A program made the translations under genes and the position numbers. The notes under the pieces are model-generated. The model had not been told where the DNA came from. It saw nothing but the letters and a program-made list of their open reading frames with translations, and did not search any database. DNA of 55,913 bases from a virus (lineage: Duplodnaviria; Heunggongvirae; Uroviricota; Caudoviricetes): positions 1 through 55,913 of IMG/VR virus record IMGVR_UViG_2778261121_000001, one strand, 5' to 3'. This document shows, one piece after another, positions 1,586-18,996 of this stretch; the first letter of the stretch is position 1; each line of letters begins with the position of its first letter.

Positions 1586-3619
1586 TTACTTAACTTGGTG
1601 GCCTGGTTTAGCACCAGCATCCGGGCTTAACAGGAAGATATCTTTCCCACCGGGGCCAGCAGCCATCACCATACCTTCGGAGATACCGAAGCGCATTTTA
1701 CGCGGAGCCAGGTTAGCCACCATAATGGTGTGACGACCAATCAGTGCCTGTGGGTCTGGATAAGCAGAACGGATGCCTGAGAAGACATTGCGTTTTTCAC
1801 CACCTAGATCCAGCGTCAGACGCAGCAGTTTGTCAGAACCTTCAACAAACTCTGCGTTTTCAATCAGCGCCACGCGCAGGTCAACTTTGGCGAAGTCGTC
1901 AAAGGTGATAGTTTCCTGAATCGGGTCGTCAGCCAGTGGGCCAGTTACCGGTGCGGCTGTGGCTTTCACTTCTTCTTTGGATGCTTCCACCAGTGCTTCA
2001 ACCTGCTTCATATCGATGCGGTTATACAGTGCCTTGAACGGATTCACTTTATGGCCCAGCAACGGTTGCTGGATGCCATCCCAGGTCAGTTCTGTATTCA
2101 GGAATGCTTCTGCACGTTCAGTCAGTTTCGGCAGTACCGGCTTCAGGTACGTCATCAGCACGCGGAACAGGTTAATGCCCATAGAGCAAATCGCCTGCAG
2201 ATCGGCATCGCGTCCTTCCTGCTTCGCCACCACCCACGGAGCCTGTTCATCGACATAGCGGTTAGCCAGGTCAGCCAATGCCATGATTTCACGGATAGCT
2301 TTACCAAATTCACGGCTTTCCCATGCTTCGCCAATCACTTCAGCGGCATCAGTAAAGGTTTTGTACAGTTGCGGGTCAGCCAGTTCGCTTGCCAGCACGC
2401 CGTCAAAACGCTTGTTGATAAAGCCTGCATTACGGGAGGCCAGGTTAACCACTTTGTTCACGATATCGGCATTCACGCGCTGAACGAAATCCTCCAGGTT
2501 GAGATCGATATCATCAATGCGCGAAGAGAGTTTCGCAGTGTAGTAGTAACGCAGGCTGTCAGCGTCAAAATGATTCAGCCAGGTGCTGGCTTTAATAAAG
2601 GTGCCGCGAGACTTGGACATCTTCGCGCCGTTCACCGTCACATAGCCGTGAACAAACAGGTTGGTCGGCTTGCGGAAGTTGCTGCCTTCCAGCATGGCAG
2701 GCCAGAACAGGCTGTGGAAGTAAACAATATCTTTACCGATGAAGTGGTACAGCTCGGCGGTGGAGTCTTTCTTCCAGTATTCATCGAAGCTGGTGGTATC
2801 GCCGCGCTTGTCGCACAGATTCTTGAAGGAACCCATGTAGCCAATCGGCGCGTCCAGCCAGACGTAGAAATATTTGCCCGGCGCGTTCGGAATTTCAAAA
2901 CCGAAGTAAGGCGCATCGCGGGAGATATCCCACTGTTGCAGGCCGGATTCAAACCACTCCTGCATTTTATTTGCCACCTGCTCCTGCAACGCACCGCTGC
3001 GGGTCCATGCCTGCAACATTTCGCTGAAAGAAGGCAGATCAAAGAAGAAGTGTTCGGAATCACGCATTACCGGGGTAGCGCCAGAAACCACCGATTTCGG
3101 CTCGATCAATTCAGTCGGGCTATATGTTGCGCCGCAGACTTCACAGTTATCGCCGTATTGATCTGGCGCTTTACATTTCGGGCAGGTGCCTTTTACAAAA
3201 CGATCCGGCAGGAACATGCCTTTTTCCGGGTCGTACAACTGAGAGATAGTGCGGTTTTTAATAAAACCGTTCTCTTTCAGGCGAGTATAGATAAGCTCAG
3301 ACAACTGACGGTTCTCTTCGCTGTGCGTCGAGTGATAGTTGTCATAGCTGATGTTAAAGCCTGCGAAATCAGTCTGGTGTTCCTGACTCATTTCGCCAAT
3401 CATCTGCTCCGGTGTGATACCAAGCTGCTGTGCTTTCAGCATGATCGGCGTACCGTGGGCATCGTCGGCACAGATGAAATTAACCTCGTGGCCGCGCATT
3501 CGCTGGTAACGAACCCAGACATCAGCCTGGATGTGCTCCAGCATATGGCCGAGGTGGATTGAGCCGTTAGCGTACGGCAGCGCGCACGTCACCAGAATTT
3601 TCTTCGCGACTTGGGTCAT
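1586..3619 (-). CDS. metG: methionine--tRNA ligase
   Basis: Translation from [29 protein letters not shown] to the C-terminus matches E. coli MetG almost residue for residue; start set at the MTQ methionine rather than the longer track ORF. Confidence 0.95.
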
Positions 3620-3776: not shown

Positions 3777-4877
3777 ATGAGCGAGTCCAAATCGCCGGAT
3801 GCCCTGAGAGCAATGGTAGCCGGTACGCTGGCTAATTTTCAGCACCCAACCCTGAAACACAACCTGACTACGCTTAAAGCGTTACACCATGTTGCGTTGA
3901 TGGATGACACACTGCATGTCGAACTAATCATGCCTTTCGTGTGGAATAAGCCTTTTGAAGACCTGAAAGAGCAATGTAGTGGTGATCTGCTCCGTATCAC
4001 TGGCGCAAAGGCTATTGACTGGAAGCTGTCGTACAACATTGCCACGCTTAAGCGCGTCAAAAACCAACCAGGCATTAATGGCGTTAAGAATATTATCGCC
4101 GTAAGCTCAGGCAAGGGCGGTGTAGGCAAATCGTCCACAGCAGTAAACTTGGCACTGGCGTTGGCTGCTGAAGGTGCGAAAGTTGGTATTTTGGATGCCG
4201 ATATCTACGGGCCATCAATTCCAACCATGCTGGGCGCGGAAAACCAACGTCCAACCTCACCAGACGGTACTCACATGGCACCTATTATGTCTCATGGCCT
4301 GGCAACCAATTCTATTGGTTATCTGGTCACCGACGACAATGCGATGGTGTGGCGTGGACCGATGGCTAGCAAGGCGCTGATGCAGATGTTGCAGGAAACA
4401 CTGTGGCCTGATCTGGACTATCTCGTTCTCGATATGCCGCCGGGCACTGGTGATATTCAATTGACGCTGGCGCAGAACATTCCTGTAACGGGTGCTGTGG
4501 TGGTAACTACGCCGCAAGATATCGCGCTGATCGATGCGAAGAAAGGCATTGTGATGTTCGAAAAAGTCGAAGTGCCGGTACTGGGTATCGTCGAAAACAT
4601 GAGTGTGCATATTTGCAGTAACTGCGGTCATCACGAGCCAATTTTCGGCACCGGTGGCGCAGAGAAACTGGCCGAGAAATACAACACGCAGTTGTTAGGC
4701 CAAATGCCACTTCATATCTCACTTCGTGAAGATCTGGATAACGGAACACCAACCGTTATTAGTCGTCCAGATAGCGAATTTACGGCTATTTATCGTGACC
4801 TCGCAGATCGCGTTGCTGCCCAAATGTATTGGCAAGGTGAAGTAATACCTGGCGAAATCGCATTCCGCGCAGTGTGA
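3777..4877 (+). CDS. apbC: iron-sulfur cluster carrier ATPase ApbC/Mrp
   Basis: Walker A SSGKGGVGKSS plus CxxC near the C-terminus; strong similarity to E. coli Mrp; divergent from metG as in enterobacterial chromosomes. Confidence 0.93.
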   Translation: MSESKSPDALRAMVAGTLANFQHPTLKHNLTTLKALHHVALMDDTLHVELIMPFVWNKPFEDLKEQCSGDLLRITGAKAIDWKLSYNIATLKRVKNQPGINGVKNIIAVSSGKGGVGKSSTAVNLALALAAEGAKVGILDADIYGPSIPTMLGAENQRPTSPDGTHMAPIMSHGLATNSIGYLVTDDNAMVWRGPMASKALMQMLQETLWPDLDYLVLDMPPGTGDIQLTLAQNIPVTGAVVVTTPQDIALIDAKKGIVMFEKVEVPVLGIVENMSVHICSNCGHHEPIFGTGGAEKLAEKYNTQLLGQMPLHISLREDLDNGTPTVISRPDSEFTAIYRDLADRVAAQMYWQGEVIPGEIAFRAV

Positions 4878-4914
4878 TAAAAAGGCGGTGCATTGCACCG
4901 CCTAATCAGTTCTC

Positions 4915-5304
4915 CTACATCACGGGACAATCATCAAACTCGCCACTTCTTGCGTCGTTGATAATGTGAGTGATCACACCAAACACGGCATTGCTGCCCG
5001 TGCATCCATCGTCATCCTTTGGCAATGCTTCCTTCTTACCGGTTCTTAAATCCTCCAGATGCTGACGTGGGTACTTCCGGTATCTTTTTACGCGATATTC
5101 CCCATCCAGAGCGCATACAAGCAGAGAACCATCAACCGGGGTAAGTGAGGAATCGACCACCAGCAATGCACCCTGTAATATTCCCTCACGATGATGACTA
5201 TCAGCTGCCCTCATGAAGTAGGTCGCTGAAGGATGTCTAATTATCTGCTGATCAAGAGAAATACGGCTCTCAGCATAATCCGCCGCAGGAGAAGGGAAGC
5301 CCAT
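4915..5304 (-). CDS. UmuD'-like protein (pre-processed UmuD homolog, HumD-like)
   Basis: Begins GFPSPAADY, the position of the UmuD autocleavage product, and aligns with the UmuD C-terminal domain; LexA box immediately upstream. Confidence 0.7.
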   Translation of the reverse strand: MGFPSPAADYAESRISLDQQIIRHPSATYFMRAADSHHREGILQGALLVVDSSLTPVDGSLLVCALDGEYRVKRYRKYPRQHLEDLRTGKKEALPKDDDGCTGSNAVFGVITHIINDARSGEFDDCPVM

Positions 5305-6105: not shown

Positions 6106-6771
6106 TTATTTTTTACGGACTGAGTTGTTCACTGCTCTGGCAATTTTCTCCCGCAATTGCTGCGCTCCGTGGTACTGAACCGCAATATCCCGCAACTCGT
6201 TCACCAGTTCTCTAATCTGGTGATCTTTAAGCTCATTATTTGGGTGATGGGTAACAACTCTGGTTAATTCACCCTTGTCTTTTGCTCTTACGTATGCAGC
6301 TCTTGTGCATTCGACCCATGTATTACCGCCTACATTAACTTCGTAGATTAGGCTGGACTTATCTATCAATTCGGAACAAATACGGGCCGTGGTCTGGCAA
6401 CTAGAGCATTCGCAGTTATCGCGGAAACCGTGGTCTACTGGCTTCGGTTTCACATCATCAACTTTTTCTACCCTATTGGAATTTAAATACTTCGAAGCCT
6501 TGCTATGCCAATCGCTGGTTTTAGGATCTTGTCCATCCATCAAACGCCAGGCTTCAGCGATTAACTCATAACTAGTGACTGTAGCTTCCTGCGCATCACC
6601 AATAAGTCGTGTAATCTCTCTTTCAAGCCGACCGCCTAGCTCTGTTTTAGTGCAATGTTCTGACCAATCGCCAGCCTCAAGCAGCGCGAGAATGCTTAAA
6701 ATATCGTCCAATAGATCAGTGGTATTATCGACTTCCTTCTGAAACTCACCGGCTACTGATTTATGCATCAT
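6106..6771 (-). CDS. hypothetical protein (221 aa)
   Basis: ORF in track; first of a tightly packed run of minus-strand genes with overlapping stop/start codons. Confidence 0.5.
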   Translation of the reverse strand: MMHKSVAGEFQKEVDNTTDLLDDILSILALLEAGDWSEHCTKTELGGRLEREITRLIGDAQEATVTSYELIAEAWRLMDGQDPKTSDWHSKASKYLNSNRVEKVDDVKPKPVDHGFRDNCECSSCQTTARICSELIDKSSLIYEVNVGGNTWVECTRAAYVRAKDKGELTRVVTHHPNNELKDHQIRELVNELRDIAVQYHGAQQLREKIARAVNNSVRKK

Positions 6772-17401: not shown

Positions 17402-17995
17402 TTACTGCTTGTTGTAAACAAAACCAATATCTTTCTTGTGAGGCATATCTGCTGCGGAAAAAGCTGCGATCTTCGCGAGTCGATCACATATTTCATTTTC
17501 ACGATGCCCGGCGTGACCTTTAACCCACTTCCAGCGAATATTATGTCGACTTGCAGCCTCATCCAGACGCTTCCACAGATCAACATTCTTTACCGGTTTT
17601 TTGTCAGAAGTCACCCATCCATTGCGTTTCCACCATTTCATCCACTGTGTCATGCCGTTTTTCAGATACTGGCTATCAGAGTGCAAAATAACGTTGCATG
17701 GATATTTCAAACGCTCCAGCCCGATAAGTGCCCCCATCATCTCCATGCGGTTATTGGTGGTGCTATGAAAACCATCTGAGAACTCGCGTTCCTCACCACG
17801 ATACTGGAGAACTATACCGTAACCGCCCGGGCCACCCGGATTTTTAAGGCAAGAGCCATCACTGAAGATTTTCACGGTTTTAAGCTGGGGATTGAACTCT
17901 ACGACAGGCGTTGTGGAATTGGTGCGGGGAGAATTTTTGTTTTTGGCTTTTTTGCGAGTTTTTGCTTGCGATCGGGCTGGTGTCTTCGTCGTCAT
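17402..17995 (-). CDS. rnhA: ribonuclease HI
   Basis: High similarity to E. coli RnhA ([30 protein letters not shown]); start set at MTTKTP with AGGAG Shine-Dalgarno. Confidence 0.85.
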
Positions 17996-18580
17996 ATAAA
18001 CTCCTGAATCAAGCGCCGCGCCGATTTTTTTCCTCGCGCGTGCGCACACGCGTGCGTGTTAATAATTATTAAAATAAACAAATTACTTCCCAGAACAGGT
18101 TTTTATAAACCTGAACTGAACGAACGAAGTGAGTGAAGTTCACCTCGAACGAAGTGAGAGGTTGTCTTTTCAGGTAATACTCTCCCAGGGAGGTGAGTAT
18201 AAAAATCCCTCACCAACCTGGTCGTTTCATAACCTGAAAAGTCATGGTCTAAGTCTACTGCCAGCTTAGACTTGGGAAGTTATGGATGACAGCACCCCAG
18301 AACCGAGATCTTCCCACACTTTATGAAGGGGAGTACTGGATTCAACCTCTCGAAACACCCCAGACTCGACAATCATAAAGTGACCCTTGTCTCTGCTCAC
18401 TTTGGTTCCCCCTTCCCCGACACCTAAACGGCACCAGTTCTACGCTGGTAGTGAGCTTTTTTTAAACCTGACGCCAGTGACGCTTACCCCCACCCATCAG
18501 GTCGAGTCTCCAGTCTACGACTGGAAACTATCAGATCTTAGCACTTACAAATCATCTTATGAATAGTTTGTACTTATCTA

Positions 18581-18811
18581 TCATTGCGATTGATTATTTT
18601 CTCGACCATGTAGTTGAACATTCAAGGCAAACACCTCGTTGATCAACTCACCTAAAAGCTGTTCAACAAGTTCGCGATGCTCCCCAAGATGCAAGCACTT
18701 AATTGCCCATTCGTACAAGTTGAAAGCCTGCTCGCGATCTTTCATCATTTCACGGGCCTGGGCCAGAAAATCGCTCTCTACGAGCGCAACGACATTAGTC
18801 GGGTATGACAT
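18581..18811 (-). CDS. hypothetical protein (76 aa)
   Basis: ORF; start set at the ATG with AAGGA Shine-Dalgarno. Confidence 0.4.
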   Translation of the reverse strand: MSYPTNVVALVESDFLAQAREMMKDREQAFNLYEWAIKCLHLGEHRELVEQLLGELINEVFALNVQLHGRENNQSQ

Positions 18812-18996
18812 GTTAGTTTCCTTAAAGTGATTCATAAAATCGATTTTAAAGCGTCTGGGAAGGGGTTCTAGTGGATTCTGTAGTGATGTTCAGGTCTGGA
18901 GTCTCTGATACAAAACAGCCTGCTTCCGTATATTAATAATTAATATGTAGTTATTTATATATACAGAAGCAGGCTAATTACAGACGCCAGAACAAA

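Follow-up and report, generated by a model that had tools for sequence, protein, structure and literature searches.

The DNA analysed here (the window; 55,913 nucleotides (nt)) comprises positions 1 to 55,913 of the IMG/VR virus record IMGVR_UViG_2778261121_000001 and, judged by its sequence, is an SSU5/pHCM2-like phage-plasmid. At the site described below, 801 bases of the window share 97–98% identity with the Escherichia coli phage-plasmids CMS-2020a, PhiR41_1, and Cyrano, and 86–92% identity with Salmonella phage SSU5, pHCM2, and Klebsiella relatives. The initial annotation had singled out positions 18050–18580 as an interval lacking an open reading frame (ORF) of 60 amino acids (aa) or more and rich in direct repeats and hairpins, and had proposed that it encodes a structured non-coding RNA (ncRNA) or acts as a lytic origin or packaging site. 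The interval is indeed free of such ORFs, the longest one wholly inside it being 59 aa (18387..18566, plus strand). We conclude that it very probably holds an expressed structured ncRNA gene, whose strand, which the initial annotation did not name, is the minus strand of the window. The predicted RNA, which we designate type A, and its surroundings are laid out as follows.

17402–17995, or to 18049 from a GTG start, minus strand: gene for RNase HI, located downstream of the RNA in most carriers.

18083–18529, minus strand: predicted type A ncRNA, ~445 nt, delineated by conservation, covariation, folding z-score, and Cyrano RNA sequencing (RNA-seq).

18543–18535, minus strand: extended −10 element of the predicted promoter, TGcTAAGAT (consensus TGnTAnnAT), with the hexamer TAAGAT at 18540–18535.

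18563–18558, minus strand: −35 hexamer of the predicted promoter, TTCATA in the window and TTTACN in relatives.

18581–18835, minus strand: upstream flanking gene of 84 aa.

Upstream genes across carriers, minus strand: a Dam-type methylase gene and this flanking gene, which is of 76–84 aa (phrog_5343, function unassigned).

The same neighbours surround the interval in all carriers, all on one strand, which corresponds to the minus strand of the window. To obtain a conservation profile, 3.5 kb around the site was aligned from nine relatives, and identity was calculated per 50-nt bin. The profile revealed that the interval is the best-conserved stretch of its neighbourhood: across six genera, identity is 84–99% in the core (18090–18490), reaching 99% at 18140–18190, and ~75–80% in the flanking coding sequences of the same alignment. 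The edges are sharp, with identity falling to 53–60% at 18040–18090 and at 18490–18590. Because the boundaries of this block are the same in every lineage, selection on the block itself appears more likely than a patch of recent recombination. The features reported for 18050–18580 are in place, but the functional unit is narrower than that interval, with a conserved core at ~18083–18529 and poor conservation at 18040–18085. A second deep clade, ~58–69% identical, consists of a plasmid of Cronobacter sp. JZ38 and several IMG/VR and metagenome contigs (the Cronobacter clade); two further degenerate patterns and nhmmer, applied across all fetched loci, yielded no third clade.

Eighteen non-redundant sequences, read as the minus strand, were used as input to RNAalifold. 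The consensus fold contains 101 pairs in 17 helices, and at 31 of these 101 pairs at least one sequence has changed on both sides with pairing kept, so that the structure is conserved in relatives, a check that the initial annotation had proposed. Paired cells amount to 99.1%, versus 92.3 ± 0.3% in column shuffles, none of which (0 of 500) reached the observed value. When the partners were slid by 1–3 columns, 33–49% of the cells were paired and 1–4 pairs had double changes, as opposed to 31. Compensated variation is also seen within the main clade, in the hairpins at both ends and in several stems. Without constraint, one would hardly expect only 1% of the cells to be broken at a sequence divergence of ~40%.

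The helix cells include 241 G-U pairs and 1 A-C pair, and reading the same helices on the plus strand would give 256 mismatched cells. For the minus strand, the consensus fold of 101 pairs has an energy of −105.5 kcal/mol; for the plus strand, a fold of 75 pairs has −69.6 kcal/mol. For the single sequence, the minimum free energy (MFE) is −166.9 kcal/mol on the minus strand (z = −4.4; 0 of 100 dinucleotide shuffles as good) and −139.3 kcal/mol on the plus strand (z = −3.8). The fold evidence for the minus strand is supportive and is not proof, because the structure was predicted on the strand that it favours; the agreement of this assignment with promoter and gene orientation points to the same strand.

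These data bear directly on a site that acts at the DNA level without any RNA function, such as an iteron origin, a pac/cos site, or a partition site. The direct repeats 25 bp apart, the many inverted repeats, and the A/T-rich flank would suit such a site. However, the compensatory changes keep the pairing and not the sequence, the 241 G-U pairs turn into mismatches when the opposite strand is read, the repeat is present in two copies only (the iteron type has three or more), and the interval is transcribed (described below). Terminase genes and par genes lie far from the interval, the former ~30 kb off in the circular element (~79 kb along the linear Cyrano record, which begins at them), and the packaging site of the initial annotation finds no support. 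A DNA-level site is therefore highly improbable.

The helices of the type A RNA are given below from the 5′ to the 3′ end.

18505–18529, minus strand: P1, the 5′-terminal hairpin, in which pairing is kept and the sequence differs in nearly every lineage (arm variants GCTTCCGGA/TCCGGAAGC, GCTGGCAGA/TCTGCCAGC, and ATTTCGAC/GTCGAAAT).

18466–18502, minus strand: P2, a hairpin with the invariant G-rich 5′ arm GAUGGGUGG; 13 pairs, 100% paired, 3 double changes, with G-U pairs that are invariant on the minus strand.

18396–18455, minus strand: P3, a multibranch domain closed by CUCACU/AGUGAG, with 3 of the 6 closing pairs covarying; it comprises the sub-hairpins P3a and P3b and the invariant loop ACCAGCG..GAAC.

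18317–18382, minus strand: P4, a domain with the stem CACUUUAUG/CAUAAAGUG, the inner helix P4a, and the invariant apical loop AGAGGUUG.

18273–18316, minus strand: P5, the hairpin UGGGAAG/CUUCCCA with the inner helix P5a; 100% paired, double changes at 4 pairs, and one copy of the repeat CACCCCAGA.

18247–18271, minus strand: P6, a hairpin of 10 pairs with 5 double changes; 6 of 7 consecutive pairs covary.

18185–18246, minus strand: P7 and P8, helices 13–14 of the covariation analysis.

18143–18161, minus strand: P9, with the stem CCUC/GAGG and the 11-nt loop UCACUUCGUUC; copy 2 of the repeat GAACGAAGTGAG.

18112–18142, minus strand: P10, with the stem UGAACU/AGUUCA and the loop UCAC..UUCGUUC as in P9; copy 1 of the repeat GAACGAAGTGAG.

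18089–18120, minus strand: the 3′ hairpin, whose apical stem varies with compensation; the invariant GUUCUGGGAAGUAA and a U-rich tract come after it.

The sequence elements listed in the initial annotation are all present and can be assigned to this fold. Its direct repeat CGAACGAAGTGAG occurs as two exact copies, at 18121–18133 and 18146–18158, and the chance expectation of a 13-nt exact repeat in 530 bp is estimated at ~0.002. On the RNA, the repeat GAACGAAGTGAG is the 11-nt loop UCACUUCGUUC, which is shown twice, on the adjacent hairpins P9 and P10. The P9 loop is conserved in both clades except at one position. The P10 stem is GAAACC/GGUUUC in the Cronobacter clade, with double changes at 3 of 6 pairs, and the loop motif is retained; this combination of a changed stem and a kept loop is the pattern expected for sequence-specific loop recognition. 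The second direct repeat, CACCCCAGA, was found at 18293 and 18356; as a 9-mer it is at chance level alone, yet both copies are conserved hairpin arms (P4a and P5a). The hairpin AGGTGAG/CTCACC is the apical stem of P8 (18185–18221), and the hairpin AAGTCTA/TAGACTT is P6 (18247–18271); both covary in relatives. The 3′ hairpin occurs in 14 sequence variants, and RNAfold kept it in all but one of them.

Several pairings are mutually exclusive. P7 competes with a longer hairpin (18232–18241/18166–18175), which is the form present in the MFE fold, and both alternatives keep their pairing in both clades. The invariant loop AGAGGUUG of P4 (18343–18350) is complementary to the invariant CAACCUCU (18157–18164), which is also one arm of P9. 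Moreover, P3 (18396–18455) and P8 (18185–18221) have the same arms as each other in both clades, CUCAC/GUGAG in one and CCUG/GCAGG in the other, so that P3–P8 cross-pairing is conserved too. This cross-pairing could be an alternative fold, a dimer interface, or the outcome of internal repeat homogenisation. The competing pairings as a whole may represent alternative folds, tertiary contacts, or intermolecular pairing, among which the two deep clades do not separate. A resemblance of the P6 loop to a CRISPR repeat, noted by eye only, was dropped, as the repeat hairpin is missing.

Upstream of P1, the spacer between the −35 and −10 hexamers is 17 nt in all clades; the position of the hexamers is fixed and the spacer sequence is free. 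The T, A, and AT of the −10 hexamer are invariant across 11 representatives, including the ~58–69% identical Cronobacter clade; a TG mostly precedes this hexamer, but Klebsiella forms have TAGAAT without it. The alignment shows a predicted sigma-70 promoter that is conserved in position and is the RNA gene's own. The 5′ hairpin starts 6–7 nt past the −10 hexamer in a sequence that is lineage-specific and a pairing that is always kept, and the predicted transcription start is A18529 or G18528. A TAAGTA palindrome lies just upstream of, or overlaps, the −35 hexamer in both RNA types (type B is described below): at 18570–18576 in the window, at ~2035–2050 in locus L005, and at ~2724–2745 in locus L277. 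Its sequence is GGTAAGTACTTACC in pHCM2, ATAAGTAAttaTTTACTTAT in type-B plasmids, and degenerate in the window. This palindrome may be a regulator site; it was set aside as a repeated operator, since it is not enriched in the window.

The 3′ end of the RNA was taken as the end of the conserved block GUUCUGGGAAGUAA, at ~18083. The core of the Cronobacter clade closes with a hairpin (ACCCAUUCUGGGU followed by AUUAUUU) that scored as terminator-like, and a strong bidirectional terminator lies 150 nt beyond it. At 18035–18056 of the window, past the 3′ end of the RNA and ahead of the RNase HI start codon (17995), there are GC-rich overlapping palindromes, GTGCGCAC and CACGCGTG, followed by seven A in the RNA sense. 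They are conserved in the main clade and partly kept in a betT-carrying relative (L009, described below), and form no canonical terminator on either strand.

No ORF of at least 12 aa is common to all 18 sequences. The sole annotated ORF is CYRAN_81 of Cyrano, a 44-aa call that the Cronobacter clade lacks and that 1- or 2-nt indels interrupt in the forms from Klebsiella and Salmonella. Among the ORFs of the interval none encodes a hydrophobic peptide, and hence there is no signature of a type I toxin–antitoxin system (hok/sok-like). As read from these alignments, the interval is non-coding.

Transcription was assessed using published data. The CYRAN_81 call lies inside the conserved core. RNA-seq data of E. 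coli LF82 carrying Cyrano, which is 97% identical to the window here, were re-analysed in PMC9928086, in which CYRAN_81 is among the lysogen-expressed genes, at 12 times the prophage background in LB (PMC9928086 Table 1). Its log2 fpkm values (two replicates each; PMC9928086 S1 Table) are 6.8 and 6.9 in LB overnight, 9.3 and 9.0 in B1, 6.9 and 6.9 in B6, 9.0 and 8.2 in macrophages at 1 h, and 10.35 and 10.3, the highest, in macrophages at 6 h. In the same five conditions, the upstream CYRAN_80 has 3.1–5.8 and the RNase H gene CYRAN_82 has 2.6–5.0 log2 fpkm (PMC9928086). Because the values of the neighbours are far lower in all five conditions, the core forms an isolated peak, 10–40 times above both neighbours; this is the coverage that the initial annotation had suggested looking for. 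The RNA is among the most abundant transcripts of the dormant element, by literature counts for which PMC9928086 states neither strand nor transcript ends. Another gene of this element, CYRAN_43 (OV696614.1 40268–40822, outside the window), which is hypothetical and adjoins integrase and repressor genes, is expressed in lysogens at 723 times the prophage background, by far the top of the element (PMC9928086 Table 1). The structured ncRNA put forward by the initial annotation is thus supported by covariation, a promoter conserved in position, the lack of a conserved ORF, and an RNA-seq peak in a 97% identical element.

The RNA is retained where its downstream neighbour is not. In Enterobacter hormaechei p1_020038 (L009), the RNase H gene is replaced by betT and the RNA is intact. 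The betT choline transporter gene (L009 ~1–1500) takes the place of RNase H and the genes behind it, with a breakpoint near the RNase H start; the site directly downstream of the RNA gene is therefore a point of cargo insertion. In the Cronobacter clade, a different small hypothetical gene follows the RNA. A copy on a Buttiauxella gaviniae contig (L092 ~4837–5164) matches the promoter-distal ~320 nt only and, lacking the promoter and the 5′ quarter, is probably part of a decayed element.

More distant SSU5-like plasmids of Klebsiella have the same gene order with a gap of 570–650 bp, which holds a second RNA that we designate type B. It was found in 30 PLSDB records, with K. oxytoca pCAV1099-111 (L276 2766–3197), AR_0096 unnamed3, and loci L277 and L279–L282 as examples, and the accompanying phrog_5343 protein is ~50% identical to that of the window. 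The type-B layout comprises (i) a TAAGTA-type palindrome; (ii) a −35 hexamer TTTACT, a 17-nt spacer, and a −10 hexamer TATGAT or TATCAT; (iii) a compensating 5′ hairpin; (iv) an RNA of ~430 nt with 140 predicted pairs, 14 of which covary among six sequences; and (v) a canonical terminator, UUCGGCC...GGCCGAA plus seven U, at the 3′ end. Neither nhmmer nor a covariance model restricted to the 5′ domain, the only domain modelled, detected homology between types A and B. The type-B loci have no Rfam match, and their records carry no annotation there. Since type B occupies the same slot, RNA genes of at least two unrelated sequences are found there. In L281 and L282, a gene other than RNase H, on the opposite strand, comes next to the type-B RNA. 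In type-B plasmids, three tandem AGCGAAAC repeats are found in the 5′ untranslated region of RNase H (L276 ~3255–3290).

These arrangements can be set against a role in cis, as the leader or attenuator of an mRNA that encodes RNase HI and the early genes following it; alternative folds would decide transcription or translation, with mostly a short product in lysogens and read-through in lytic growth. Such a leader would have the strand and orientation of the operon, as does the RNA, which lies 90 nt upstream of the RNase H start; the RNA level drops 14–40-fold from the core to RNase H; the main clade is without a canonical terminator; and the mutually exclusive helices (P7 versus the long hairpin, and P9 versus AGAGGUUG/CAACCUCU) are conserved. 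By contrast, the RNA is unchanged with betT downstream in L009 and is retained with a different gene in the Cronobacter clade, the gene downstream of type B lies on the opposite strand in L281 and L282, and the RNAs of the Cronobacter clade and of type B end in terminator hairpins well before the next gene. In addition, ~445 nt, 16 helices, and near-invariant loops go far beyond the known needs of an attenuator. We consider this explanation unlikely.

The non-coding interval alone matches 687 plasmids in PLSDB, 677 of which are non-mobilizable. The carriers fetched are ~100–125 kb in size and derive from Klebsiella, Escherichia, Enterobacter, Salmonella, Citrobacter, Cronobacter, and others. 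The type A RNA is carried by pHCM2 of S. Typhi and is present in 232 of 5,426 complete E. coli genomes. The element encodes T4-like replication and recombination proteins (UvsW, a UvsX-like RecA, UvsY, a gp32-like SSB, a primase, a helicase, and Pol III alpha), and RepA is encoded in relatives (CYRAN_63). Three replicon types (IncFIB, rep_cluster_488, and rep_cluster_763) all carry type A, and the RNA type is therefore independent of the RepA replicon type. The interval contains no tRNA. The RNase HI has a basic N-terminal extension of ~40 aa before the Pfam RNase_H domain, counted from the ATG at 17995; in the ORF with the GTG start (17402–18049, minus strand), the Pfam RNase_H match covers residues 58–196. 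The 76-aa phrog_5343 protein belongs to no Pfam family, its PHROG is functionally unassigned, and its 29 homologue clusters all fall within this phage-plasmid group. Its predicted model has three helices (pLDDT 79), and comparison with the PDB gave no significant sequence or fold match, hence none to Rop. The idea of this neighbour as a Rop-like or RNA-binding partner was dropped, as there was no match in family, function, or fold.

The neighbouring RNase HI gene raises an RNA-primed (R-loop) origin, like ColE1 RNA II or T4 oriF/oriG, in which the transcript would hybridise to its template near the 3′ end and the phage RNase HI would trim the primer for lytic or high-copy replication. The RNA adjoins that gene, and the element has the T4-like gene set listed above; in size and extent of folding the RNA is similar to RNA II of ColE1, it contains the G-rich tracts GGGUGGGGG and GGGGAAGGGGG, an A/T-rich stretch (18060–18088) lies past its 3′ end, and Cyrano is present at 5.5 copies per chromosome. 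However, 18050–18580 has no promoter-like site on the plus strand, no analogue of RNA I, and no match to Rfam RNAI; RepA is already encoded by the element; the RNA is kept in elements that lack the RNase H gene; and conservation is lowest in the A/T-rich stretch. Cumulative GC skew runs monotonically across the site, without an inflection; the RNA is abundant in non-induced lysogens; and the RNAs of the Cronobacter clade and type B, two related forms, stop at terminator-like hairpins. An R-loop origin is improbable. The lytic origin of the initial annotation is not supported, given the GC skew, the expression in lysogens, the terminator-like ends of the two related forms, and the presence of only two repeat copies, both of them loops of covarying RNA hairpins.

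Searches for known families and targets were negative. Rfam 15 gave no match for the whole window at gathering thresholds, and for the region at E ≤ 10 it gave junk only (best 21 bits versus a gathering score of 56), so that the covariance-model scan suggested in the initial annotation assigned the RNA to no family; the scan spans those among RNAI, ROOL, GOLLD, 6S, tmRNA, and CsrB that are included in Rfam 15. A full-text literature search found nothing on an RNA or origin at this locus, and PGAP provides no annotation for the interval in the listed E. coli genome records. The loop motif has no further copies or complements elsewhere in the window. In the 108-kb Cyrano genome, the longest complement to the RNA is 13 nt, which is the chance level for antisense targets.

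A scan of public collections with the invariant motif of 20–22 nt recovered the same family and three unrelated contexts. The motif (C)CTCGAACGNAGTGAGAGGTTGT (20–24 nt) occurs exactly in L030 at 6300–6330 (also in L021, L057, and L229), in L094, L224, L251, L264, and L265, and in L096 and L236. The first context is a GC-rich phage, in which the motif falls in the linker of a 442-aa ORF that looks by eye like a replisome organiser, amid CTCACTGA repeats; the second is an overlap of putative sigma-factor and anti-sigma genes of Acidobacteria, as read from sequence; and the third is an A/T-rich Woesearchaeota contig. All three were rejected as coincidence, because the number of independent matches fits chance for 19–21 specified bases.

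The outcome of the target search also bears on an immunity or specificity RNA of the P1/P7 c4, P4 CI, or N15 CA kind, which would silence a lytic or antirepressor function and of which types A and B would be heterospecific alleles. Expression in lysogens is comparable to that of putative repressors, one slot is shared by discrete, unrelated types that are each strongly conserved, and SSU5 has an Ant-like gene ~2.5 kb downstream, as this proposal would have it. The RNA is, however, five to six times larger than the c4, CI, and CA RNAs, has no Rfam match (including the c4 model, if Rfam holds one), and has no complement beyond chance in the operon or the 108-kb genome; its whole helices and loops are conserved across genera, unlike those of antisense regulators. 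The probability of such an immunity function is low.

Taken together, we favour the reading that this is a stand-alone ~445-nt structured ncRNA gene of SSU5/pHCM2-type phage-plasmids that acts in trans, with a probability of roughly 0.55. Action in trans is suggested because the RNA survives replacement of the downstream gene and related forms carry terminators. The RNA would end before RNase H by termination or processing and would act in its folded form by binding protein, as a scaffold, or as another ribonucleoprotein (RNP), and not as a simple antisense RNA. A trans-acting RNP is preferred over antisense because the loops as well as the stems are near-invariant across genera, because complementarity to the 108-kb element does not exceed the chance level, and because the type of RNA is not tied to the RepA replicon type. 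Near-invariant loops and stems are typical of RNAs that bind proteins or adopt a defined three-dimensional shape, unlike antisense regulators. Recognition may proceed via invariant single-stranded elements, mainly the twin UCACUUCGUUC loops and the loop AGAGGUUG. Since the RNA is expressed in lysogens, its role may lie in the dormant (plasmid) state or in host interaction of the phage-plasmid. This specific RNP mode is put forward tentatively, as a possible one.

Several points weigh against the favoured reading. The covariation rests essentially on one deep split, the Cronobacter-type clade being 4 of the alignment sequences, together with variants inside the clades; because most double changes come from this single split between two clades, the independent covariation events are few. 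Several mutually exclusive pairings are each conserved, and the fold given above is therefore not the sole possible one. The 5′ end rests on promoter prediction, and a generic promoter scan did not call the minus-strand promoter. Ahead of RNase H, the main clade lacks a canonical intrinsic terminator, and the RNA could therefore be a long leader or a processed product. Finally, the adjacent 76-aa protein gives no clue to a partner.

A broader proposal is that the slot represents a new class of large structured RNAs (types A and B) with a mechanism undescribed for phage-plasmids, for example, a self-assembling or multimeric RNA, a ribozyme, or an RNA decoy directed against a host or defence factor that is conserved. 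The two types would in that case be able to replace each other or would represent specificity alleles, and the P3/P8 cross-pairing and the twin loops would take part in the mechanism. We regard this as possible but less likely than not.

The presence of a second, unrelated RNA in the same slot suggests a function that is general to the group. Phage-plasmids of the SSU5/pHCM2 type are common in clinical Enterobacteriaceae, and the family carries resistance genes; their immunity, their switch between plasmid and lytic states, and their effects on the host are largely uncharted. Annotation pipelines leave the interval blank or call a spurious 44-aa ORF in it, and a new ~445-nt RNA with strong covariation is rare in such well-studied hosts. 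The RNA could explain self-regulation or host manipulation by these elements.

Compared with known systems, the RNA resembles ColE1/pMB1 RNA II in being a long (~0.45–0.55 kb), folded, plasmid-borne transcript from a constitutive sigma-70 promoter, with plausible alternative folds and an RNase H at hand, here encoded next door. It differs from ColE1 RNA II in that (i) it has no sequence or Rfam similarity to it; (ii) no RNA I or opposing promoter was found; (iii) the element has its own RepA; (iv) the RNA is kept where RNase H is absent; and (v) related forms have terminator-like hairpins. Like P1/P7 c4, P4 CI, and N15 CA, it is a non-coding RNA of a lysogenic plasmid prophage and lies within an operon of the same orientation. 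By contrast, those RNAs are 70–80 nt long, are processed, and pair with repeats of their own operon, whereas the RNA described here is ~445 nt long and no complementary target was found for it.

Small RNAs (sRNAs) of the CsrB/RsmZ type likewise repeat one short motif in hairpin loops and are abundant and regulated; here, however, there are two copies only, the motif is UCACUUCGUUC and not GGA, and GGA is not enriched (~7 in 440 nt). Type III toxin–antitoxin systems (ToxI) share with the locus a promoter, a repeat-containing RNA, attenuation, a downstream ribonuclease gene, and an RNA level far above that of the mRNA. The locus differs from them in having two 13-nt repeats 25 nt apart and no tandem array of 34–45-nt repeats, and its downstream gene encodes RNase HI, not a ToxN-like toxin, and is dispensable for retention of the RNA.

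The ROOL and GOLLD RNAs (also OLE and raiA) are hundreds of nucleotides long with many helices and conserved loops, are linked to phages or mobile elements, and have functions that are still open, in all of which the type A RNA is similar; in comparison with ROOL and GOLLD, the P3–P8 cross-pairing might reflect multimerisation. Unlike these four, it has no Rfam match at E ≤ 10, resides in phage-plasmids of Enterobacteriaceae hosts, and is not beside tRNA genes. By analogy, the RNA would work most like the large structured RNAs of mobile elements (ROOL and GOLLD) or like protein-binding sRNAs, although it is a member of none of these. It is a new RNA family of a known general kind, encoded by a stand-alone gene.

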